From Raillietiella orientalis (Eukaryota), in contig JAYWIR010000025.1 of assembly GCA_036172245.1 (NCBI GenBank), forward strand, positions 744,001 through 808,000: 64,000 nt of DNA, written 5' to 3'. A model generated the notes under the pieces. The model was not told the origin of the DNA and did not search any database. It saw only the letters and a program-made list of their open reading frames with translations. A program made the translations under genes and the position numbers. This document shows, one piece after another, positions 1-58,007 of the stretch (within the stretch, counting starts at the first letter, position 1; every line of letters starts with the position of its first letter).

Positions 1-431
1 CCCATTTAACACTACGGTAATCTGAATTCAGCGAGCCATCCTGGACAGTGTAGGTAATTTATGGGAACCGAGCAACGTAATTTGATATTTTTGTTTCTGT
101 AGATTAGTGCGAAAACTGTGCATTATTTGGAATTGCACAACATAACTTCGAGGTTGAAGTACAGCAGTTATAATTATTATTATCGACCTTAATTCGGTAA
201 ATCTGTATTCAAATGTGGTTTTCAATGGACACTTGGGCAGCGAAAAGTATTCTGGTTCGTGAATCGCTCTTTATGCTGTTATTGTGTTTGCTGTCACCCA
301 GTCATACTGCTACCACGTTTGCCACGTTTTAAGTGCGTAGATTGCCCTGATGTCCGTAATGAGAAAATAAACATTGAGTATTATACTTTATTATCTTTCT
401 GTAATGTGAGCAGCGTAACGAAGTGAAGGGT

Positions 432-3254
432 ATGTCTTACACAAGAAGTACATTTGTTGATAATGAGGTAATTATAAAAAGTTTTGTATGAAAATGTATG
501 AGTGTATGTGTCTCTTTGCGTTTACCACTATCTGACTGCCATAATTTAATTCAAAAAGATGGTGTTAATCGGAAGTTTCGAGCCCGAATATTTCTCCTTC
601 CTCCCCCCCCTCCCCTTTTAAGTGGCTTGTTCATTTGTTTGTTATTTTAGATTGATAATGAGCAGAAAGAAGTGGAGGCCCAGTTTCATTTCCAAGGTAA
701 TACAGCATCGCTTTGTTCAATCAAATTGACTTTCAGATGCATGGAACTGATAATAATTCGTGTTTAAACCTTTAAGACATACTATGTAGTAACAAACATC
801 CCTGAAAGATATGCCTAATTGTCTCACAGACACTAAGTATTTAGTTGCAATGTATTCAGACTCCAAACCATTTTTTTCAGAGTTCCCCGTTTCGGACAAT
901 GCTGAAAAGAGGAACATTCAAACTCACTCGTTTCCAAAGTTCCCAGCTGTGTCAGATGATTACAGCCCAGAAGATGTGGTAAGAGTAATGTGAAAATTTT
1001 TCTTAGAAAATATGTAATGCACTTATATTTAAAACCATAATTTCTTATTATTTTCATCTATCATGTTTTCAATTAACCTCTCATTTGCCAAACATGATGC
1101 ATGTTTGATGTGTTGAATGAAATGCCCCATGTGTAGAATTTATTGTTTTCTTTTTTTTGTAAGTTGCGAATTCCATAAAACATTTCTAAGTATGCCTGTT
1201 TCTAAAAATCTTTTTGTCAAGTGTTTACTCTAAGGGGAAAAAATCCATTATTTTTTTTTTCTTCATTTACCAAAATGTAAAGTGAAAATAAAAGGAAGTG
1301 GAAATTTTCAGACTGTACCTAAGAGAAGCAAATTAAATACTTGTACAAGTGCAAAAATTGCTCACATTCAAAAAAGATCTGCAAGACAATCTCAATTTGA
1401 TGATCTTCATGCAGTTGTTAACAGTGTATTGGTTGAAAGCCCTCCTTTGAAGAGTGTTCTAGTAGGAGAAATCCTTAACCCTCAGCATGCATCTTCAGTG
1501 GTTCAGAAGTTGGCTTTGTTAAAACCCCTACCATCACTTAAACATTTAAAGAGAGTAAAAGTTACTAGAAAAGCTGATGGATCGACCAGTTTGTTTGTGA
1601 TTTTAGAAGAGCAGGACATGTCTAGTCCAGTGAATGATTTAGCCACTTTGCTACAGAAAGATAGTTGTTATTCCTCAATTACCGGCTTGAAGCAAACTCT
1701 CCAAAGCTGCTCTGTACCTGCTGTAGCCCCAAAGACAAGAAAACAGTATAATATTGCACAGCAGTTTTGGCCAGTGAACTTTCATGAGGACAAATATCTT
1801 GAAAGACTTCTTAATTGTAGTCTTTTTGGGCCAAAGGAGCTGCAACAGCTAGAATATTTTATGCAGAAGGCTATCCAACAAGGTAGGAAAGCTAAAGCAG
1901 AAGGTAGTGACCCTGTTGGAGTGGTTATCATGGATCCTTGCCAGGATACTATTTATGTGGAAGCTTGTGATGAACGTAATGTTTACCCACTTCAGCATGC
2001 ATGCATGGTGGCTGTGAACAAAGCAGCTATCAAACAGAGAAATTCGACTGGCATAGTCCAGTCTCGCTCAGCTCAGTACCTGTGCACTGGTATGGATGTA
2101 TATGTAACACGAGAGCCATGTCTCATGTGTTCCATGGCACTGCTTCATGCACGAGTCAGAAGAATTTTTTTTGGTGTTAGCAACATTACAGGAGCTTTAG
2201 AAAGCAAAGTGCGTCTGCATACACTGCAAGGCATTAATCATCGTTATGAAGTATTTGGGGGACTACTCAAAAAGGCAGTGGAGCAAATGGAGATGGATGA
2301 ATTGTAAATTTGAGCAGAAAGTGTTTTAAATTTTGAAAAGTGGATTGTTGGGGGCACTGACTGATCTGTGCCAGGTTGTAGGAAAATCATCACCCGGAAC
2401 ATCTCCAAACTTTTGGACTTTTAAGTACTACCAACAGTTCTTTGATGTGGATTCATGGCAGGTGGGCGAACGCATTTTACATTCCATGATTCCACGTCCT
2501 GGATATCTTCAAAATTATATTCGTCCCAAACCAGATCTATATGGTCCACTGTGGATTAGCATCACTTTGATCTTTAGCATTGCGATCTCAGGCAATGTGG
2601 CCAGCTATTTGCAGACAGCTACTTCAGCTGTTTATATCTGGAAATATGATTTCCACAAAGGTGTGTCTCACATGGCTGCGTGTGATTCACTTTGTACTTC
2701 CAGTCTCCCAGGCAGCTGTTGCCATCTTCAGCTACATGTGCTTGCTTCCCTTACTGTTCTGGGGATTGCTACGCTATCGGAAGAGCCTGACCAGTCTCAG
2801 TTTCATTGAAATCCTGTGTGTCTACGGCTATTCCTTGTCCATCTATGTGCCTGTTTCTGTAGGTGGCCTGGAAAGCAGCAATATTTGCGGTTCAGATTAT
2901 TTGGTTGATTCAGGTGAACTGGATTCAGTGGCTGTTTGTATTATTCGGAGCACTTTTGTCCGGAAGCACCTTAGTGTTAACATTTTGGCCTGCAATGTTC
3001 CAGGAGCGTCAGATAATAGCCATTCTTCTTATGTTGACCATTTTGACAGCTCACCTGAGCTTGGCTGTGGGATTCATGGTGGGCTTACCACTGGTTTTCT
3101 TTGTTACTGATTTTGCATATTTCAGCTTTACTTTTTCCATGTTCCAGATCATGCAGTTGCACTTACTCAAAGCAGTGTATCATTCTCAAGGTTGAGTTCT
3201 GCATCAAAGTCCATTATCTCATCAAATTTGAGTGCTAAAGCAGTTAGTCCCTAG
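432..3254 (+). CDS. YIPF1: Yip1-domain Golgi membrane protein YIPF1/YIPF2, 7 coding exons: 432-467, 651-696, 881-978, 2375-2660, 2704-2858, 2896-3078, 3126-3254
   Basis: Joined exons give [15 protein letters not shown]...[25 protein letters not shown]...[22 protein letters not shown]...[14 protein letters not shown], the YIPF1/2 signatures. All introns are GT-AG and phases are consistent. The first three exons are inferred from splice sites and frame only and are less certain than exons 4-7. Confidence 0.9.
1312..2307 (+). CDS. ADAT3: tRNA-specific adenosine-34 deaminase non-catalytic subunit ADAT3/Tad3; single exon nested in YIPF1 intron 3; start codon must come from an upstream exon
   Basis: ORF contains LKHLKRV, PKTRKQY...FWPVNFH, PLQHACM (no catalytic Glu, as in ADAT3), [32 protein letters not shown] and INHRYEVF. 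In-frame stop at 1231-1233, first in-frame ATG only at 1618, in-frame TTTTCAG acceptor ending at 1311. Confidence 0.93.
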
Positions 3255-3976
3255 TATTACGAAATGGAAGATGTATTTGCTCCAGCATGAATGCTGAAAT
3301 GTTTGTTGTGATTACTTTAAAAAGATATGTTTCACTTTTTTGGTTAATTTTTGTAATTGTTACGTGAGATGAACTGAGGTCACACATATTTTTATCAGTT
3401 ATTCTGAAAGCAATTTGAAGCTGAAGATGGCAATTTTTTTCTATCTGAAGATAGCAGAAATCTGTGCAGATTCAAGTTACAGGAAGATGAGGTTCATTAG
3501 TTACTAGAAAATAAGATTAAGTTTCATCGCTTTCATGATATGCAAAGTAACATGCTGTTTTTACAAGTGAAATTTATTGGACATATACCGAATTTTTGAA
3601 AGTGTGTGTATTTATTTTCCAAGGATGTGTGTTTCTATAAGTACAAACCAAATCCATTTTGGTGATTTCAGTGTTGAGTGGCTAGCTTCTTTATACCTAA
3701 GATACACTCCTAAGTTTCCAAGGGGTCAAAAATAAATAAATAAATAAAAATAAATCGCAGGTTATGTTTGTTATTTCGGAAAATACGTGAAAAAAAGTGG
3801 TGTGATGTCCACAATATAAATCTGAGTTTAGAAAATCGTGCTGTGTTTATGTGTTTTTGCACTAAGTCATCAAAGATTTGTAATTAACCAACGTGAGGGT
3901 GTGAACATTGGGTGGGTAAAAGTAGAAAAGCTGATCATTCAGCCGAACCAAAGATTTCCAAATTAAAGTGTTTCCA

Positions 3977-4017
3977 AATTGTGAGGCGCGAGATCGAGCA
4001 TGTCGCGCCTCACAATT
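3977..4017. repeat. Perfect 15-bp inverted repeat (hairpin) with an 11-nt spacer
   Basis: AATTGTGAGGCGCGA (3977-3991) and TCGCGCCTCACAATT (4003-4017) are exact reverse complements. Confidence 0.9.
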
Positions 4018-7000
4018 CAGTGCTTCTGTTTCTTAAACGGGTCCACAAGAGTGTGAAACGCAGTTAATACCAGAGGAAATTTCGTTTCCTCAAGGGAAAA
4101 CAGCCGGCATGTGGATTTTTCTTTAGCATGAAAGACCGCGCTCCAAAACATTTTTTGCTTCTTTTTAAGATCGTGAGGAATCATAGATATTACCAAGATT
4201 CAAATATCAGCGACGGAGTTTGCTGGAATCTGATGACATGGTCTTCTTGCTAGGAAGAATGGTGCAACTATGAAAACGAATAAAAACTGAGTGCACCCGC
4301 AGGAGACAGCGTAACCGAAGAAGAAAGAGATTCGCATGAAGTAACACGGGAACACCTTGTTTCCAAAGTCGAGCTGGAAACACAATTTCGCGATTTCTTT
4401 TCTGGTTTCCATGAGAGCCAAGCAGGGAGTTTTCCATCTTAATTGCACAGGAAATATGCTAAGTAATTTTAATACGAGCTTCGGGAAAAGTTCTATTTTT
4501 CCACGCTGCACTAGCTGGACCTCTGCTAACTAGGTAATCCTTCCGATTTCTGTACTTGCTCTTTTATTTGGAGGCTATTGGGATTTGCATCCAGCCTCGA
4601 ACCTTGCTTTCTTTTGCTTCCCCCCCTTCTCCTGCACGATTTGTCCCAGTTCATTATCAGATGCAATATTCCTTGAAGCTCATTCAGGAGCTTTTGTATT
4701 CCGACTATAAAATTCTAATATCCCGAGGCGTTATGAAATGCATCCTGTGCTAACCAGTTGTGCACCGTACACTTGGATTAAGTAAAGTCGTGTCCAAATG
4801 GTCAATAAAGTTTGGAAAACAAAGCGTAGTAAAGCATCAGAAACAAGCGGTTGCCCACCGAGAGACCTGTGGATGGATGTTAATGTGCATTCGTGTTTCT
4901 AAGGAGACAGCGAAGATGCAACTTCCAAGACCTGTCCTACACTGCATGTTCAACACCAATATTATTTAACCAGAGTTTACCGTGGACCCATGACGGGACC
5001 ACAGAAGGATATTTCGTGAAGCTTGAAGCCAGACTTTTCCTAACAGTTCCAGTGATCCATAGATTTGTGGCAAACACATGCATGTTTGAGCTGCGTGTTC
5101 TCAAGTGTTCTCGCGGCACTCAACCATTGTGAGCAAGATTTTTGTGAATGGAAATTGAGACATCGTTGAAATCCTCCAATCTATTCGACTTAATTTACGA
5201 GCAAATCATTATTTCGCCCAGCTGGATGTGGAAGAATGTATGCGCAGGACAGTTTAATTTACATTTTCTCATGAAGTGGTTATTACGTGAGAGCTTCAAG
5301 GGTGCAGAAATAAAAAGTAGCATCTAGTTGGATTATTCCGAATCCGGAATAAAATCATCTCTAGCGAGTGGCGGATGAGGTGAGGATCAAATTACGGCAC
5401 ACTGTTTGCGTGAGTTTAGAGGTGGATTTCACACGAGGCTCATGAAATGGAACCAGGTGTTTTGTTGTATGGTGGAACGAACAGGCAGCATTCGTGGTTT
5501 GAGAGCTGTGAATGTTGGTGTGGAGTTCGTTTCGTAATGGAAACTTGTCAATGAACAGCAGTTTGTGTTTCTGGATCGCAGTTCTAATCATGTAGAAGGG
5601 ATCCACCAAGAGGACATGGCGTAGGTTCTTCTCTTTGCCATCACACAGTATGGCGTTGCTACTACTTTTTGAATCGATCGCGAACGCCCTAAATCGAAAA
5701 GGATTCCTATTAAAGAAGTATCAAGAAACTGAATAAGGCAGCCATGTTGTGAGCATGATTAATGACGTTCCAATTGGAGATGACTCGCTAACAAACTAGC
5801 TGGAGGCCAGTGCCCAAAGGTGGCACAAGATTCATTCTTCCTCCTTGACGTTATCATGGTCAAAATGTCCATTCCATCAGACAGTTCCGTCTCTGATTTG
5901 AATTTATGCCAGAAAAAGCCTGACTTTAAGGAATGGGGAGATTTATCGTTCTCACTACGCGTATCATGACTTCTCGACGTGTTCTAAGATGGCTAAAGGC
6001 TGTTTGGAATGCATGGTAATGACTACGTTTCCACACTGTTTATTGAGTACAAAGTGAAACTGAAGGAGGATCTAGCTAGAGCTGGCATTAAATGAACTCT
6101 TGCAGAGTGTCGAAATGATATAAGAGCTTTGGATCTCGAGACGGAATCGGGTGACTCCACAAGGCAGGTGTAGCGGCTTGTTCCTCTAGGTGATTCCAAA
6201 GGTAATAAGTCTAGAATGGCCCTAAAGAGTCCAACTTTCAAGTCATGTAAATCTCAGTTCGGAGGATAAAATGGCAGCGACCGCTTTGTTGGTTGGAAAA
6301 ACGACTGTGACATGACAATCATCCAAGGGGGTTTCAAGATTGTCGGTTGATTTCAAGGTTTCCAGATGTGATGAACAGGTACGGATTTGGGATTGGGGAC
6401 CTGAACCAGGAAAGTTCCAATAAGGATCGGAGCTGAGGGTTTTGAGTCGCTGAGATTTGGTGCTTAGGAATCAGATGGTTCACCAAATGGCCGTTGTTGT
6501 TATGCTGGACTTGAATATGAAACAGGATCTTGATTCCCCGGAGTGCAGAGTTCAGCGAGCGAAGGGATTAGAATGATGTTAGCCGTGTGAAGAGCCTCAC
6601 TCTGTGTGTGTGACACTGATGTTGGGATGAATAAAAAATAAAAAGATTTTTATGCATATGGGTAGGATACATTCTAGAGCTCACATCATGAGTTGTTTGT
6701 GATTATTATCTATCACCTGAGCAGCGTAACTGCCACAGGGGATGGGTGAGATATAGAGTGGAAGTTGTGAAGAGGATGATGTCTGGATGATTGCGAAGGA
6801 TGGTTATGTGAAGTTTGCTTGGAAAGGGCTTGTTCTTGTAAATTGGAGTAGGGTTCTGAGGAACTTCTTTTCTTTCTCTGCCTTTGTACTGGCATGGATT
6901 CATTGTTTTCGACAGGATAATCAGTGGCGCGATTCCTCCAGGTTGGCTACGAATGTAGCAGAAACCTTGATTTCTCCATGACAGCTGAAGGTGCCTTTGC

Positions 7001-8236
7001 TGGAAAGTCTTTTCATTGGGAGAATTCATAGGATGTGACGTAAGACACGGGGATCGACAATCGTCATCTGATAAGAGATAGATGCGAGAACGAGTTGCGG
7101 AACCACTTTGCAATTGTATCGTACATGAATGTTAGGTCTGGGAGATGAATTTCTTAAAAATGTAGATTTACAATTTCTTGGTTTGGATTTCATGATTCTA
7201 TTGATGGATGGATTGAAGAGACATAGCAATGAGTCATAGCAACAACACGTAGAAAAAGTGGTTTGCATATATGAAAACAATCTTGCAACAGTAAGTATGC
7301 TGAAAGGAAGAGTTAGGGAAGACAAGAACAAAAAATGCTGTAAAATTGAAGTGGAGGAAGAAATCTGATAGAGGGGAGTTTATGCTGCAGATTGCAGATC
7401 CATGAATGCCTTTATTTAAAAGCAAAAGAAAAAAACGACTTCATATGTAATCACTATGTCGTAGCACCGAGCGTTTTCTGTCCAGCCATCACAGTCTCTT
7501 CATTCATCTTTGCCACAAGATGAACAAAGAGAACACGCGCATTAGGGGAAAGCAAGCAGAGGAGTGTGTGGCATTGCCCGTTTTGTGGGTGGTTATTTAT
7601 GGAAACCTTGGTTTCTTCCTTGGTTACAGAGTTGCTTACGAAGCTCATCAGTTGTGTAGATGTGACTAGGGGCTAGGAAGATGAGGTACGGTTGATCAAG
7701 GAGAGTATTCACTGCATCAAAGTTGAGGTCGTTCGACGCGGTAGACAATCAGGGTGAATTCACACGTCCACCAAGCTGTAGTCACGCATTTAACGAAAAG
7801 AGGAGACATGCAAGTAGTAAGTGGACTCCCGACTACCGGATTACCGTCCTGGTGAACTTGTGTCTGGTAGTTTGGAGTTGCTGGCGTGGAGGACGCATAC
7901 TAGCCGTAGAAGTCCGCCGAGGCCAAGAAGGGGAAGCTTGCGAAACGCTAGGCAGGCAGCAGGGTGTTTCCTTCTTTCTAATCCTTTAGCCGCGGCGGCA
8001 TTGCCTCCCGGGTTGGCACGCTCGGGCGGTGTTTACACTGGAGGCGAAGCCAGTGACGCGAGGCGGAGTGATCTCTTTCAGTACTTCAGAGCAGATCCTT
8101 CAGTGGAACGCGCGAAAGTGCTGCTGCTCGAAAAAAAAAAGGGGGGGGGGGAATAAGGGGGAGACCTTGCCGAAGACCAGGTTGCAGTCGGAAGAGCTGC
8201 TTTATTTCAATGAACCAGCAGGATAGTGAAGACATC

Positions 8237-11200
8237 TCAGACTAGAGGGGGGTAGACGATTCCACCTGATTTGTCACGTTTTGTGGCCTCATGGACTTCC
8301 CGCATCATCTGTTGCACTTGGTCGCTGCGCACTACCCGGATGGAATCCTCCAGATCGAAATCCCGTTTGGATCCAGTGCTCTTCCTTGCCTCCTCGATTG
8401 GGCTCAGCACAAGAGGATCCGCCGTTTGGCGAAGGAGCAACTCGAGCGGATCGTTTTCCCCGTAGTTGCTCTCCTGATTTCGGGAATCGTCTGCTGTTAC
8501 GGCGCTTCCCGGATTCTGGCACGTCGGATAGCAGGATTCTTGCTCACAGACATAAACTCTGGAGATAAACTTGATTTCGGAGAACCTCGAAAAGGCGAAC
8601 GCTTGCAAGGTGGTCACCCATTCGTTCTTACTGATCTTCACCACGGGGCTGAGGATTCGCTTGTCCACCACGCAGCCATGGCTATCTATAAGCAGGGCTG
8701 ACGAGTTGGTCTCCGGGTCGAATGCGACCAGGTCCGTGACGGCCATACTCTGGAAGGGGGACGAGTTGTGAGTGATGAACTTCAGTAGCAGGATTTCCTT
8801 GAGCTTGGACGCGTTCACCCTACAGCCCAAGGTATCCGTAACTACCAGCTTGATTTGATCCTCGTGCTCTTCCGGACCTGGGGGAAGAGATCTTCAGCAC
8901 TCCATGCAACATGGCAGTGAAGGGAAGCACAATTATTGGAAAGCATATGGACAGTCAGGAGGATTTTCGGGCAGATTTCGGGAGTGGAAGATACTCGAGA
9001 GCGCGAAAGAAGATCATTCTCGATCATAACTTTTTCCCTTCTTCGTGTGTGGCCTGCCGTTATTGAGAACATCGAAGGGATGCTGATGTGGATCGTCGCT
9101 ATGAGAAACGGAAACGTAGAGACGCTTCAGACGGAAGGAGTGTTGATGCTTCTCCTTGTTCAGTGGTATGGAATAGATGAGGTGGTAAGAAGAGGAAGAA
9201 CGTAGACATTAGTGCGAGTAGTTCGCAGCTGAAGACAACTTCCAGTGTGAGAGAGATCTTGCGTGCAAGATGATTATTCGCGTATGAAAGACAAAGTGAT
9301 GTACCACAGAAATTCGAACTAAAGACGAAGAGAAAAGGGTCAAACAGTGACTCAGGGACTGGGGAAGGAACAAGGGAGAAGGGATGAGGAGTTTATTTCG
9401 GTCCTGTGGAGTTCAACCTCTAGGGTCGTTTGGGAATACTTCAAAACAGAGAGAGTGACAAGATGAAGAATGCTCCCGGGAACAATATGGAAGTGGGTGG
9501 GGTGTTCGCCGCCTTTGACATTCTTGGTAGGCCTCTAATCGGACTTGTTATGAGTGGGCTGTCAAGGTCATGGAGCTGGTGATGCTGGATGTGTCGAATA
9601 GGGCATGCGTATGTACGCGCTTTTTCCGATGCAGGTGGAAGTTCAGGGGAGTTTCCATGGAGACACCTTTGGAACGACGGCTTTGGTCATCTCTAGAATC
9701 TGCAAGGTTTCTCCGAAATGGGCAGCGGAGGCAAGGATAGAGAAAGGCAACGTGTCTTGGGTAGTTCGTGGCTTCTCTGAAAAAGCTCTGCGATCCCACC
9801 ACTGCAGATCGAAATCGTGTTCGGGGATTCTGATTTCAAGGTGAACGACCATGCCAGTGGAAGCAACCTCCCGTTTTCAAGGAGATGCATGCCGCGAAGA
9901 TCCAGCAGAGGAGGGCAGGGTCCTCCTCAGAAGGGACTCTGGAGCCTGAGGCAAGGCTGCTGGATCTCCACGTGCGCGGCTGGAGGGCAGAGGTGAGGAA
10001 GGGATGCACCTCACGCTGGGGAAAGGGGTGGGGATGGGAGGGGGGGCATGAGAGACCAGCACCAACGATCGCAACGACACCGCCGATGTCCTTCCAAGAG
10101 GAGGGAGGACGCTCCTTGTGGCCTGGTACTTCCGAGAAGCACGTTGCGGGAGGGAGTGGAGAAGGGAAGAGCGTCAGATTTCCGGGAGGTCCGGTCAAAT
10201 AGGAAGCTCGAGTTCCAGCTGTTCGAGTTGGGGAGGGACTGGAGGAGGGATGCATCGGAAAGGGTGTTAGAAGGGGGGTGGAGTGAGAGGTGCACTCGGC
10301 TGGCCTGGAAGTGTGCAGGGGCTGCTTCTGAAAGCGCCGCTTTCCCCCCCTCCAGGCAGCAAACTACCCCGAGAGCTGCGTTGCGTCCCCGGAGACCTCA
10401 CGGAGAGTCTGGTTCCCTGGGGGGTAGAGGCGCCCACTGCCAATTCGTTGCTCATCCTTATCTACCCCCCTTCCCTCCTGCACTGGTGCCCTCCGGGAGA
10501 TGGAGACAGGGCATGGACTGCCGGGGTGCGCGTGGGTTTCCTCGCGGCAAAGCCCGGGGAGCGGAAAGAGAGGAGAGGGGGAGGGAGGAAGCCAGGAACA
10601 TCGCCTCGAGAAGAAGAAGGCCCCATTTCCCAAAGGCAATTTTATCCCAGCCTGTCTCCCGACTCTTGTCGCTCTCTCCTCCTCCCCCTTTGCGGACTTC
10701 CCGAGCGCTCAGCATGCCAACCTGTTTCTCTCCTGCAGGGAGGCCTCTCCTCGACGGCTCCGAACCAGCTGATGCCACCCCCTTCCCACAGGACCTTCTC
10801 TTCGTTCCCCATCTCTTTTCTGAGGCTGTGCTGGTGGTCTTTGTCCTGCAGGAAGGGATACCAGTACCCCAGAAGGGCCTCCTTCAAGTCCGAGACGGAG
10901 GGGATTTTGATCCTGTCTTCTTCCTTCTTGGTAGGAGGTCCTCTCAGCTTTCGCTCCGTTTCCTCCGTGTATAACCCTCCCAGGTCCTCGATGGACACGA
11001 TGGCGGCTCTCTGGCCGTTGAGACGGTCCGGACAATGCAGGAAGATTCGGAAGAGGTCGCGGCTCTTCCCGATCCTGGATTTCTGCTGAAGAAAAGGAGG
11101 TGAGGTCCGGGGGCGTTTCATTTGTGGGTGCTCGCCGCGCTCAATCGATCACCGTATCAGATCTGGAAACTCCGCGTGCCGATGGTACGGACGGATCCCC

Positions 11201-13485
11201 ACCCTTCCTCTCTTCCAGACCGCGTTTCCCCTGAAGGAACGGTGGCCCTCCTCCCGAACGCCCTCTTCCTGACACAGCCGTCTCCGCTGCTGCTGCTGCT
11301 GCTGCTCCTCCTCCTCCTCGCGGAGGCGACTAGCTGCCTCTCACCCACCTGCATTCGAGCGACGACATTCCCGGTTTATTTCGGGGCTCCCCGGGTGCCT
11401 TTCCCCTTCTCCCCCTGAGAGGCGGCAAGTCCCCGCACCCCTTTCCGCACCCACCTGTACGGTGACCGAGACCTCGAAGAAGTCCGCCTCCTTCTTGCTG
11501 AAGGGACAGTCGTCGTTCGCGTAGTCTAGACTCAAGTGAAAGGTGTGGTTGTTGACCACGTCGTCGAAGCATACTCCCGGGCCGGAGTCCACGGACATCC
11601 TGCCCGTGAACATGGCGTCGGTTTCCACGACGACCTCCAGTCCCTCGGGGCCGCAGTCGCCCTGCACGAGGAAGCAGTTGTTGGGTTCGTACGTACGGGC
11701 GGCGCTCCCTCCGTAGAAGGCGTGGCCCGTGGCGACCAGGGAGGAGGGGGAGTGGTGGGTGAGGCGGCACTCCCCGCGCCCGGTGGCGTTAAATTCGAAC
11801 ATGCGGCACCTTGGAGATGGCACGGGGAGGGAAGCCGTGTCTCCTTGCTTCCCGGGCCGGCGCGCGCCCCGGGCTCCCGCTCACCGGAAGGCGACGCTGT
11901 TCATGCAGAACTGGTGGCAGCTCTGCACGTTCTCCACAGATTCGACAATGACGTCCACGGACCGCGGGACGAGACCCATGACGGGCGCGAACCCGCACGC
12001 GCGGGAGTTCCAGCTGCGGGAGGAGCAGCCGTTCTCTAGGTAGCTCCATCCCCGGGATCCAAGCATCAGTTGCCTTTTGGCGATCGCAGGCCCCAGGCTG
12101 TGCCTGTCGAAGGGGTTCAGCTCGCACGTCTTGGACGCCTCGTCGAAGTTGATGGACCTGCGGGAGGGAGGGAAGCGGCGCGGAAGGATGGCTTTCCTCC
12201 TCCGGGGAGCCCCCACCTGCAGAAGAACCAGCCCCTCTCCAGGCACTGCGACATGCAGTCCTCGATCGTGATCGCAGCATAAAGCTCGCTTTTTTGGCTG
12301 AGTTCTGCGGGCAGCATCCTTGTCGCCGGGACCTCCTCGAAGATCCACATGCTCCTGGGGCATTCCTCCCCCTTGTTCACACACACCTTGTAGGCGTACG
12401 TCGAGGGCACCATCACCGTGGAGACTCTGCTATCTGGAATGCGCGGGCCGGTCAGGGACCCAGGGAAGGGCGTAAGAAGAAGAGAAGGGGAGGCTCCCAC
12501 CCTCCTCTAGCCCCCCAGAGCAAGGAGGCGCCTGGAGCCGTTCCGCCGGACACAAGAGAGATCGAGAGGACGGAACTACCCTGCTGGAGCGGCTGCGGCG
12601 AGGGATGACGAGGGGGGAAGGACGTCCCGAAAGTGCTCGAGGCCACACCGCGGCGGCAGCAGGAAGCGACGAGGAAAGGACCAATTGGGAACAGAGCGGA
12701 GGGAGGGGAGGAAGAGGGGCAGTGCGAACCGGACATCCTCTTTTCGTTTCCCTTGTAGATGGGGGCGATGCTCTCTCCGCTCCGTACCCCCCAGCGCTGA
12801 TCTCTCACCACCTTGCGGTCTTTTCAGGAAGGCCACCACACCTAGAAGAAACTCCCAGAGGGTCGCGAGCCCTCGCAGGGAGGATGTAGTCGTCGAAGAA
12901 GTCCACCTGCCTACGTGCATCGACTTCTACCTCCGAAAAGGGGTGGCCCCGAACGAAGGAGGGGAGGTGGGGAAGAGGCAATCACTGACATGACGCGGAG
13001 CGCAGCGGTGCCCCTGGTGGGACGCCTCGTAGATTCGCCCCCCCCCCTCCCACCCCATTTCAAGGATTTTCCCGGATGCCCGAGCTGCGTCGGCTTCCGC
13101 GTTGCGGGAGCAAAGCCGGAGGGCGGAGGGCGTCCCTCTTACCAAAGTTTCCCATGTCCCGGAAGGGAAACAGGTAGCAGCGTCCAGGGTAGAAGAGGGC
13201 GGATCTGCAGTTGCTGACGCCCTCGCAGGAGCCGATGCACCGCTCGATGGACAGGACATCTTCCATGAGGAAGTGGGTGGTGGTGGAGAGGTTGGAGATA
13301 GCGAAGGGGAAGTTTTGGACGATGACGAAGGAGTCATCGGGGTCGGGGCAGCCCAGCTGCCCCCCGATGGCCGAGCGCAGGAACGCTGGGGGCAGCAGCT
13401 GCAGCAGCAAAAGCAGCAGCAGCAGCAGCAGCGGCGGGGGTGGTGGGGGTGGGGGCGGAAGGGGTGAGGAGCGGCGTCCGCCCAT
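8237..13485 (-). CDS. Secreted PAN/apple-domain plus zona pellucida (ZP) domain protein (NOAH/nompA/trynity-like apical ECM or cuticle protein), multi-exon
   Basis: Leu-rich signal peptide at the start. PAN modules: CIGSCEGVSNCRSALFYPGRCYL; CPRSMWIFEEVP...DCMSQCLERGWFFCR|SINFDEASKTCEL...YLENGC; CGFAPV...SCHQFCMNSVAFR|CRMFEFN...CRLTHHS. ZP-N: VQGDCGPEGLEVVVETDAMFTGRMSV...VSVTVQ|QKSR...FLHC. ZP-C exon 8877-8237: LLIDSHGCVVDKRIL...LQAFAFSRFSEIKFISRVYVC. Exons at 12.4-13.1 kb and 8.9-10.7 kb are not resolved. Confidence 0.85.
13394..13433. repeat. (CAG)n microsatellite encoding the poly-Leu signal-peptide core of the PAN-ZP gene on the minus strand
   Basis: gcagcagctgcagcagcaaaagcagcagcagcagcagcagcgg, translated on the minus strand as LLLLLLLLLLQLL. 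Confidence 0.8.
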
Positions 13486-55864: not shown

Positions 55865-58007
55865 ATGGGCAAAGGTGAGCCATGTTTTGAGAAATACTTT
55901 CAGGGTATCATATCTAGTATGGATAAGAGTGATATCAGTAATATATCGAAAGAACTAGCCAGCCTAAAAACCATTTACCGACAAGTTTCCTATGTCATGA
56001 ATAATTATGCATCAAAACTTCCCAACGTTAAAGCTGTAAAATCAGAAAAAAGTATCGATTCGTTCCAGGATCTTAAGAAGGAATCCATGTGCCTGTATAA
56101 AACGGGAGAATTTGAAAATGCTTTAAAATACATAAACCTGGCAATCGGCACATTACCCCTAACCCTGAATAAATCACACGAAAGATTGTTACTTTCCACT
56201 GACTGTGTGTGTTTCGATGAACAGTTATTAAATTGTTTCGATCCCGAAACGGCAACGAAATTCTGTGAGTGCGTAAATCAAAGATCTGCTATCTTGTACA
56301 AGCTGAAGGACTATTACTGTTGTGTTTGTGACATTAACAGGATTCTTCTTACCGAGAGTCCAGAAAATTTTGATGATCTACTTGTGAGAAAGGCTTCTTG
56401 TTATTTAAACGCTCATTTTCATCCTGAATTTCATTCCCAAATCCAAGACTTAATCAACTCCAGGCATGAAAATGATGAAGCAAGAGTTACCCATTTAAAA
56501 GCGCTGTTTGCAAAAGGAGGAGAATTATTTTTTCCCAACAAATCATGTGTAACTACGCGTTCGTATCAAACAATGTTGCCTAAAACTTATCCACACAGTA
56601 AACTCAAAATAAGGATTAGTGCAGAATTAGGAAGGAGCATACATGCTTCTGAGGATTTGAAACCTGGTAATATTGCTGACCAGATTGTTTAACAAACATG
56701 GTTGTAGTGTATTTATGATTCTGGTTTTTACAAAAATTGCTTCTGCTTAGTAATTACATGTTTTCATCATAGGAGAATGTATTTTAATAGAAGAGCCATA
56801 TGCTTCAACTCTTGTACCACAAATGTGGCACACCCACTGCCAGTATTGTCAACAAAGACTCCACTGTGCTTACCCATGTCTTCATTGTGCCAGTGTAAGA
56901 AATTCATTTACTGATTTCTTAAGTCAGATGTAGGTTCTGTTTTGCAGTCCAACCTGCATGCAGTCAGCATGGAATGAATTCCATCAGTTTGAATGCAAAT
57001 TTTCTTGCAATCTAGCTGATGACAGTCTTGGAAAAATGGCAGGCTTAGCATGCCGAGTCATTACTAGAACAGGAATTGATCATCTATTGCAAAATCGAAC
57101 CTTACTCTTAAATGAAATAAAGCAGAAGCTTCAAACGGATCCTTCCATCTGTGACAGCACGTATGAAAATATTTTTCATTTGGTTGGACACCATGCAAAA
57201 CGTACTGTTGCTGATCGATTCCGACGTATTACAATGTCTATATACTTATTACGCTGTCTTGAAGTCACAAGTTTTTTTAAAAATACGCTTACAGATGAGA
57301 ATAAACAAATAGTAGCATCATTTTTATTGCATCATTTACAGAATTTGCCATGCAATGCCCATGAACATAATGAAATGCTTTTGGCACATAGCTTAGAGCA
57401 TTCTCAGATGGTAGAAATAGCAAGTGGCATATTTCCAACCCTTAGTTTATTCAATCATTCATGTGACCCTAATGTGACCAGAATATCTATGGGACAAGCA
57501 ATCCAAGTACGGACAATTCGTTCTGTTCACAAAGACCAAGAATTAGTTGACAATTATGGATATCATTATGCTCTTCATAATCTAGAAGAGAGACGGGAGA
57601 AACTATTAAGTCAATATTACTTTTATTGCAAATGTGAAGCATGTTTAAATCAGTGGCATCTTTATAAAGATTTGCCACTTTGGCCCCAATTGAAGTGTCC
57701 TTGGTTATGTGAAAATCAACCTCACTGTTGCCATAAACATGAAATTAATGAGGAATTCTTGAAGGGACATCAATACCTGGAAGCTGGCATGGAAAAAGTT
57801 TTATCTGGACGTATTGATGAAGCACTAGGATTGCTGCTTCCTGTGATACCTATTTTTGATAAATATACAAGGAGACCATTTAGTCATTATAATGATGCTC
57901 AGGAAGCTTTGAAACAATGCTTTGCCATGATGGGAAACTGTTATGACAGTGATGGACAATGGGTTGAGCTTTTATCTTCCTTATCCAGTAAAATCACCTA
58001 TAGATAA
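55865..58007 (+). CDS. SMYD4: SET and MYND domain lysine methyltransferase, SMYD4-like, 3 exons: 55865-56666, 56773-56894, 56934-58007
   Basis: N-terminal TPR-like helices, S-sequence GRSIHASEDLKPG|ECILIEEPY, MYND finger CQYC...CLHC...FCSPTC...HQFEC, SET motif SLFNHSCDPN, NYG and post-SET YYFYCKCEAC. GT-AG introns of 106 and 39 nt keep frame. Exact start codon and orthology among arthropod SMYD4 paralogues are uncertain. Confidence 0.88.

Follow-up and report, generated by a model that had tools for sequence, protein, structure and literature searches.

In the first 3.3 kb of a 64,000-nucleotide (nt) stretch of the Raillietiella orientalis genome (contig JAYWIR010000025.1, positions 744,001 to 808,000 of the forward strand; hereafter the window), a compact seven-exon gene for the Golgi membrane protein YIPF1 (432-3254, + strand) hosts the gene for the tRNA-editing subunit ADAT3. 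Very probably, ADAT3 carries YIPF1 exons 1-3 (60 amino acids, aa) as a coding leader joined through a 978>1312 splice, rather than exon 1 alone, since ADAT3 and YIPF1 begin with identical prefixes in decapod crustaceans and the 978>1312 product fits a profile of such leaders. A sequence-only reading of this DNA had placed the ADAT3 open reading frame (ORF) on the same strand in YIPF1 intron 3 (979-2374), coordinates that hold, and had proposed that ADAT3 and YIPF1 use a common promoter and start codon, the choice between acceptors 1312 and 2375 settling which of them is made, perhaps with shared coding residues. ADAT3/YIPF1 pairs in three decapod genera now support this proposal, with 63-67 identical residues in the decapod pairs; in the window, ~60 would be shared.

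The shared leader was recognized through decapod relatives. Among 120 ADAT3 homologues listed (of 148 found), three decapod RefSeq proteins start with a leader containing LQFQDF, and residues 1-75 of Penaeus monodon ADAT3, used as a query, returned 8 of 52 candidates, namely three ADAT3 and five Yip1-domain proteins. An identical N-terminal prefix, after which the two proteins diverge, was found in 3/3 species in which both were compared (67 aa in Penaeus vannamei, 63 in Panulirus ornatus and 63 in Palaemon carinicauda), and in each of these species ADAT3 and YIPF1 lie on equal-length contigs. The point at which they part matches window 978|1312 versus 978|2375: window exons 1-3 align end to end with the decapod leader, codon 1312 falls opposite the residue with which the ADAT3-specific part of the decapod proteins opens, and proline is the third residue after the switch both in the window and in 6/6 decapod records checked (switch placed by alignment in three of the six). 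The sequence-only reading had suggested looking for YIPF1-ADAT3 nesting in related genomes; gene models of shrimp, lobster and crab show this leader and part at this point. Furthermore, the distance from the switch to the conserved HLKR motif (72 aa in decapods, 77 aa in the window) matches the Met-to-HLKR distance of other ADAT3 records (median 71, quartiles 62-83, n = 215), so that the nested exon amounts to a complete ADAT3 from which only the ATG is missing. In four decapod ADAT3 ORF calls (P0058, P0063, P0069, P0211) and in P0210, a Portunus model from GenBank, the N-terminus is unrelated and Gln directly precedes the switch residue, as would result from reading through a CAG acceptor.

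Candidate junctions were scored against a profile of nine leader-bearing ADAT3 N-termini, window excluded. The 978>1312 product reached 42.4 bits, compared to 29.9 for 467>1312, 27.7 for the ADAT3 exon alone and 27.0 for a private mini-exon (1158>1312), and 0/500 shuffled leaders attained 42.4 (mean 29.2, standard deviation 2.2, maximum 38.9). We infer that the exon 3 donor is joined to 1312 in Raillietiella orientalis. Two phase-1 routes from exon 2 (696>1283 and 696>1415), although in frame, scored 28.2 and 24.6 bits and were dropped.

Two further features of the decapod models concern the leader. The X1 isoforms of Macrobrachium and Palaemon ADAT3 carry, relative to X2, a 7-aa insert that directly follows LQFQ where exons 2 and 3 meet and is conserved in both prawns; its position at the end-of-exon-2 point is consistent with an exon border there, and it reflects alternative splicing inside the shared leader. 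Separately, an 852-aa Penaeus chinensis model (XP_047477327.1) runs from the leader through the complete ADAT3 to the complete YIPF1 membrane part. Among eight long or leader-bearing records checked, no other contained the YIPF1 body, and this one is probably an annotation merge or an all-exon splice product. A triple fusion protein was set aside, this model being its sole example and the window donor near the ADAT3 stop being out of frame with exon 4.

The open frame of the guest (1234-2307, + strand, 357 codons) is bounded upstream by an in-frame TAA (1231-1233) and has no in-frame ATG before 1618, as the sequence-only reading had described; HLKR lies 77 codons into the ADAT3 exon and upstream of 1618, such that a start there would indeed remove the LKHLKRV region. 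The TTTTCAG acceptor ending at 1311 is in frame, and exon 1 (ending 467) and exon 3 (ending 978) both end in phase 0, again as first read. Among the phase-0 AGs listed for 979-1620, 1312 follows the sole CAG/TAG upstream of the conserved region, while the AAG at 1222 reads into the stop at 1231. The exon matches PF00383 (expectation value (E) = 6e-16) and aligns over residues 52-329 with the solved ADAT3 chain 7nz7_B (E = 1e-49). Zinc ligands of the deaminase fold (H, PCxxC) are present, with H229, C270 and C273 invariant across the alignment, and the catalytic Glu of HxE is replaced (HAC in the window, HAV in 7nz7_B). An N-terminal tRNA-binding domain with HxKR is likewise present; a review (PMC11802342) calls the basic residues of HLKR essential for tRNA binding. 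The genome (210 megabases, 491 contigs; the assembly may be incomplete) holds a single ADAT3 match, along with a 171-aa frame containing HAE and PCLMC (contig C13:1427976-1428284), which from these motifs we take to be ADAT2. ADAT2 and ADAT3 form a textbook pair, and window ADAT3 is predicted to bind tRNA and to serve ADAT2 as pseudo-catalytic partner in wobble A34-to-I editing.

The host model is open throughout (310 aa), with GT-AG introns of 183, 184, 1396, 43, 37 and 47 nt; the last three (2661-2703, 2859-2895 and 3079-3125) are very short. Both Yip1 motifs, D-L-x-G-P and phi-phi-G-Y..P as defined in PMC6682643, occur in the window protein as DLYGP and VYGYS..P. Exon 4 is 46-69% identical to 66 homologue matches, and the whole model 39-56% identical to 25 YIPF1 rows. 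A Pfam scan of the single exons, as opposed to the spliced model, gave no match; relatives carry PF04893 (Yip1). YIPF1, too, was found at a single locus in the search of the same, possibly incomplete, assembly.

Several alternative starts for ADAT3 were weighed against a leader from YIPF1 exons 1-3. ADAT3 could be an ordinary nested gene with its own promoter in intron 3, whose main or only first exon would be the mini-exon 1117-1158, the fit to YIPF1 exons then being an ancestral relic (re-fission in place). The sequence-only reading had raised this mini-exon as a competing model, and it is present in phase 0, with a perfect GTAAGT donor and two in-frame ATGs (1117, 1129); one genuine YIPF1 donor likewise has T before GT, and Su(var)3-9 re-fission is reported in aphids in PMC1435931. 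However, the pattern was picked post hoc, with looser donors passing in 29-73% of shuffles, the composition is intron-like (Table 1), the encoded peptide matches neither the YIPF1 nor the ADAT3 N-terminal profile, and the 1312 acceptor keeps exact register and phase with exon 3. We consider a privately started gene improbable, and a minor extra isoform using the mini-exon somewhat easier to accept, if still doubtful. The two host donors proposed in the sequence-only reading fared differently, 978 being upheld by the profile and 467 falling in the shuffled range. Borrowing of exon 1 alone (467>1312, 12 aa) would lie nearer the human first-exon-sharing layout, is in frame at phase 0 and would give a 343-aa product of ordinary ADAT3 size, yet it skips two exons and two nearer donors, and the exon 2-3 part is present in all leader-bearing decapod models seen; we judge it very improbable. 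Least credible is that an unspliced or dicistronic RNA is translated from ATG 1618 or a non-AUG codon, or that ADAT3 is a decayed copy. ATG 1618 does open 229 codons including the deaminase domain, but starting there deletes the HLKR tRNA-binding motif that the exon conserves, 979-1617 holds many short upstream ORFs, and the exon has no internal stop and is the sole ADAT3 match in the genome.

A number of observations weigh against the exons 1-3 leader. The profile test speaks to homology and collinearity of exons 1-3 rather than to junction use, and the decapod evidence consists of automated gene models, taken as database entries; identity of the window to the decapod proteins is ~35% for ADAT3 and 42-46% for YIPF1. 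The 1312 acceptor is weak, being purine-rich upstream, with AGs at 1282, 1294 and 1298 and no YTRAY branch match in 1231-1311. Of 2000 shuffles of 985-1275, just 1.1% produced the mini-exon pattern of an in-frame ATG followed by GTAAGT (GTRAG, 3%), and Artemia RefSeq isoform X4 has a lone private Met before the ADAT3 body, so private starts exist. Furthermore, RefSeq ADAT3 of Oratosquilla lacks the leader and the crab ADAT3 exons begin with Met, which indicates that host dependence is not absolute in Malacostraca. Finally, the prediction of Penaeus ADAT3 residues 1-55 as unstructured (predicted local distance difference test score, pLDDT, <50), which speaks for the leader, is weak evidence because only 9/76 aligned rows cover it.

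Under the proposed mechanism, a single promoter upstream of 432 would produce one pre-mRNA, from which alternative 3' splice-site choice would generate two unrelated proteins: 978>2375 would give YIPF1 (310 aa) and 978>1312 ADAT3 (391 aa). Exons 1-3 would supply the start codon and a 60-aa soluble leader, by origin the YIPF1 N-terminus, which is cytosolic according to the topology in PMC6682643; the leader presumably has no membrane segment. Acceptor 2375 (CCAG) is preceded by branch-point matches CTGAC (2357) and CTGAT (2361), whereas none lies within 80 nt of the ADAT3 acceptor; ADAT3 is presumably the minor product, as the 1312 acceptor looks weaker. Human ADAT3 with an N-terminal GFP still binds ADAT2 (PMC6751630), and the leader may be a tolerated disordered tail. 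At the 3' end, the ADAT3 mRNA could finish by intronic polyadenylation (polyA) in the 67-nt gap before exon 4, as an extended exon running into exon 4, or as a cassette exon through a donor at 2304, options that we leave unranked. Of 13 polyA-like hexamers tested in 2281-2400, the sole match was TTTAAA at 2325; joining the 2304 donor to 2375 adds one residue and then stops in YIPF1 exon 4 in another frame. Within intron 3 (1159-1195), an AAG at 1163 that closes a pyrimidine tract could serve as acceptor and GTATGC at 1190 as donor for an exon of 26 nt, which would bring an in-frame stop when joined to exon 3, speculatively a poison exon.

As to origin, an intronless ADAT3 copy may have landed in YIPF1 intron 3 with an acceptor directly before its own ATG, which later decayed. 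The ADAT3 exon opens with Met in Eriocheir and Portunus (crabs) and Oratosquilla (mantis shrimp), with Ile or Val in the remaining decapods and with Thr in the window; a single substitution separates the Ile, Val and Thr codons from ATG, as expected if an intronless copy had been captured right at its start codon, although few lineages bear on the point.

We also asked how widely the leader occurs. A profile of 60 YIPF1 N-termini (from the 66 exon-4 matches, no named decapod among them) matched 11/255 ADAT3 records at E<0.001 (isoforms counted), and window exons 1-3 matched it at E = 0.0015. These 11 belong to Penaeus, Panulirus, Palaemon, Macrobrachium, Eriocheir, the amphipod Hyalella azteca and XP_045621537.1, presumably Procambarus clarkii; the leader is also on Portunus RefSeq ADAT3 X1. 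Hyalella ADAT3 has the leader, the switch point not being located there. Artemia X1 begins with a similar-looking leader (E = 0.81), and with three different profiles 9, 15 and 43 of 1000 shuffles scored as high; homology here is suggestive only, and an ESM Atlas search with this leader gave no usable match. The leader was not seen in RefSeq ADAT3 of Oratosquilla or Amphibalanus, nor in listed insect, chelicerate, myriapod, mollusc and cnidarian ADAT3; many unnamed records are unspliced ORF calls unable to show one. In trees of YIPF1 (26 rows) and ADAT3 (245 rows), the window fell outside the sampled malacostracan clade (5 rows, support 100/100, and 24 rows, support 0.977, respectively) on a long branch with no supported home. 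Among 80 of 541 confirmed metagenome loci, none had a YIPF1 tblastn match at E<=0.01 (11 queries), a result made uninformative by the many short loci and by most being distant deaminases. The YIPF1-ADAT3 layout is crustacean rather than peculiar to the Raillietiella orientalis genome. A bolder and rather tentative possibility, which we would not favour at present, is that the fusion happened once, early in a large pancrustacean clade made up of Malacostraca, Branchiopoda and the window lineage, and was undone in barnacles, copepods and hexapods, with a functional leader. Support for a shared leader beyond Malacostraca is weak, the Artemia leader being reached in 9-43/1000 shuffles and the window lineage being unplaced.

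The closest known system is, by analogy, the Su(var)3-9/eIF2gamma locus of dicondylian insects, rather than human SCAMP4/ADAT3. As described by Krauss et al. 2006 (PMC1435931), that locus uses one promoter and 3' alternative splicing, and both mRNAs were cloned; the window pair is known from sequence. Both loci would make two unrelated conserved proteins from one promoter, with the guest part as one large same-strand exon in a conserved host intron (window 1312-2307 in 979-2374) and a host-derived, shared, in-frame N-terminus (79-84 aa in the insects versus 60-67 aa in YIPF1/ADAT3). In each, the locus supplies the sole orthologue of both genes (for the window, in a genome search of an assembly that may be incomplete), retrotransposition is proposed for both, and both have lineages without the fusion. 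All-exon transcripts reported there may be compared with the 852-aa Penaeus chinensis model. The two differ in genes and clade, in phase (0 in the window, 1 in the insects) and in character, the window host being a membrane protein and its guest a tRNA-editing subunit.

The sequence-only reading had instead invoked human ADAT3, nested in SCAMP4 and sharing its first exon, with YIPF1 as an independent host following the same logic. Promoter sharing stands: PMC2568002 (Table 1) lists ADAT3/SCAMP4 as a promoter-sharing pair with shared 5' exon(s) and little coding similarity, such that guest, membrane-traffic host and borrowed promoter plus 5' exon are alike, and independence follows from the hosts being unrelated. 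The logic differs, however, as YIPF1/ADAT3 shares a start codon and ~60 coding residues, in contrast to the low coding overlap listed for SCAMP4/ADAT3. A comparable class is the FlyBase 'Genes with CDS overlap', for which PMC4528330 gives 10 pairs and one triplet; its members differ in function and evolutionary origin yet have promoter, first exon(s) and translation start in common. Adat3 has 0 matches in the main text of that paper, whose gene list is File S2. Compared to the malacostracan RefSeq models, whose ADAT3 opens as YIPF1 does and leaves it at the homologous residue, the window locus is far more compact, exposing the 67-nt 3' gap.

Table 1 Features of the YIPF1/ADAT3 locus (window positions) and examples of leader-type database models
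Feature	Position or accession	Strand	Remarks
Common exon 1	432..467	+	Start codon, 12 codons, phase 0 donor; aligns with decapod YIPF1 and ADAT3 N-termini
Common exon 2	651..696	+	Phase 1 donor; end = F-Q of YIPF1 LQFQDF-type motif
Common exon 3	881..978	+	Phase 0 donor GTAAGA at 979 = putative switch point; end aligns with end of identical decapod ADAT3/YIPF1 prefix
YIPF1 intron 3, ADAT3 host	979..2374	+	1396 nt
Candidate private mini-exon	1117..1158	+	ATG ... GTAAGT donor, phase 0; 26% GC, 52% T
ADAT3 splice acceptor TTTTCAG	1305..1311	+	Short pyrimidine tract; in frame with ADAT3; no YTRAY branch match in 1231-1311
ADAT3-specific exon	1312..2307	+	331 codons + stop but no start codon; HLKR in the N-terminal tRNA-binding domain; HAC and PCxxC in the pseudo-catalytic deaminase domain
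Possible donor GTAAAT	2304..2309	+	Over last ADAT3 codon and stop; sequence only
Gap, ADAT3 stop to exon 4	2308..2374	+	67 nt; weak polyA-like TTTAAA at 2325
YIPF1 exon 4	2375..2660	+	DLYGP motif, first transmembrane segment
YIPF1 exon 5	2704..2858	+	
YIPF1 exon 6	2896..3078	+	
YIPF1 exon 7, coding part to TAG stop	3126..3254	+	
Candidate polyA signal	3731..3754	+	First AATAAA cluster after ADAT3 and YIPF1: 3731, 3739, 3749
Leader-type RefSeq models, Malacostraca	XP_037788315.1, XP_027223841.2, XP_068232884.1, XP_066967549.1, XP_045621536.1, XP_050689854.1, XP_045124639.1, XP_018025331.1		Examples

Around the locus, window positions 1-7800 are AT-rich (27-48% GC per 200 nt) and the adjoining ~8000-48000 are rich in GC-type open frames; a SET-domain frame (56934-58004, +, E = 3e-8) and a weak PAN-domain frame (11344-11880, -, E = 0.002) were also seen. 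About 1.7 kb upstream of the window, a G/T-skewed stretch (8095-8360 of locus L002, contig C25) encodes a hydrophobic 64-aa frame under the invertebrate mitochondrial code and is possibly a mitochondrial insert; a Pfam scan of this frame gave no match. Elsewhere, two equal-scoring cytidine-deaminase matches (L087, C27:1513026-1513340, -; L088, C27:1518900-1519214, +) lie inverted and 5.6 kb apart, reflecting either a recent inverted duplication or an assembly artefact.

The YIPF1/ADAT3 layout is already implicit in RefSeq models. In the open-access literature, where most subscription papers are lacking, we found no paper on the pair or on YIPF1 alternative splicing in crustaceans, and the combination of ADAT3 and Yip1 returned only a mouse expression dataset. 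Comparison supports well the assignment of YIPF1/ADAT3 to the Su(var)3-9/eIF2gamma type, a rare known sort of locus; here a single splicing decision would select between two housekeeping proteins that are unrelated to each other. It is rare for unrelated, widely conserved proteins to have their start codon and tens of residues in common (the 10 FlyBase pairs and triplet of PMC4528330); YIPF1/ADAT3, from a different arthropod clade, would be a second deep case beside the long-lived Su(var)3-9/eIF2gamma, and YIPF1 would be the second independent host of ADAT3. Its presence, its loss and the decay of the guest ATG may serve as a rare genomic character for pancrustacean relationships, and gene finders tend to mis-start or fuse the pair. 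The locus may also provide a compact test bed for how a single weak acceptor doses an essential low-abundance gene. In practice, shrimp, crab or crayfish in which the 5' exons of YIPF1 are knocked down or knocked out would be affected in tRNA inosine editing as well. Should the ancient fusion prove true, the leader, with its two conserved F-x-D/E-F-like motifs, would be more than baggage and could place or dose ADAT3, the splice switch at 978 would tie the supply of tRNA wobble inosine to the output of a Golgi-traffic gene, and ADAT3 would be a serial hitchhiker, lodged twice in membrane-traffic hosts, counting human SCAMP4.

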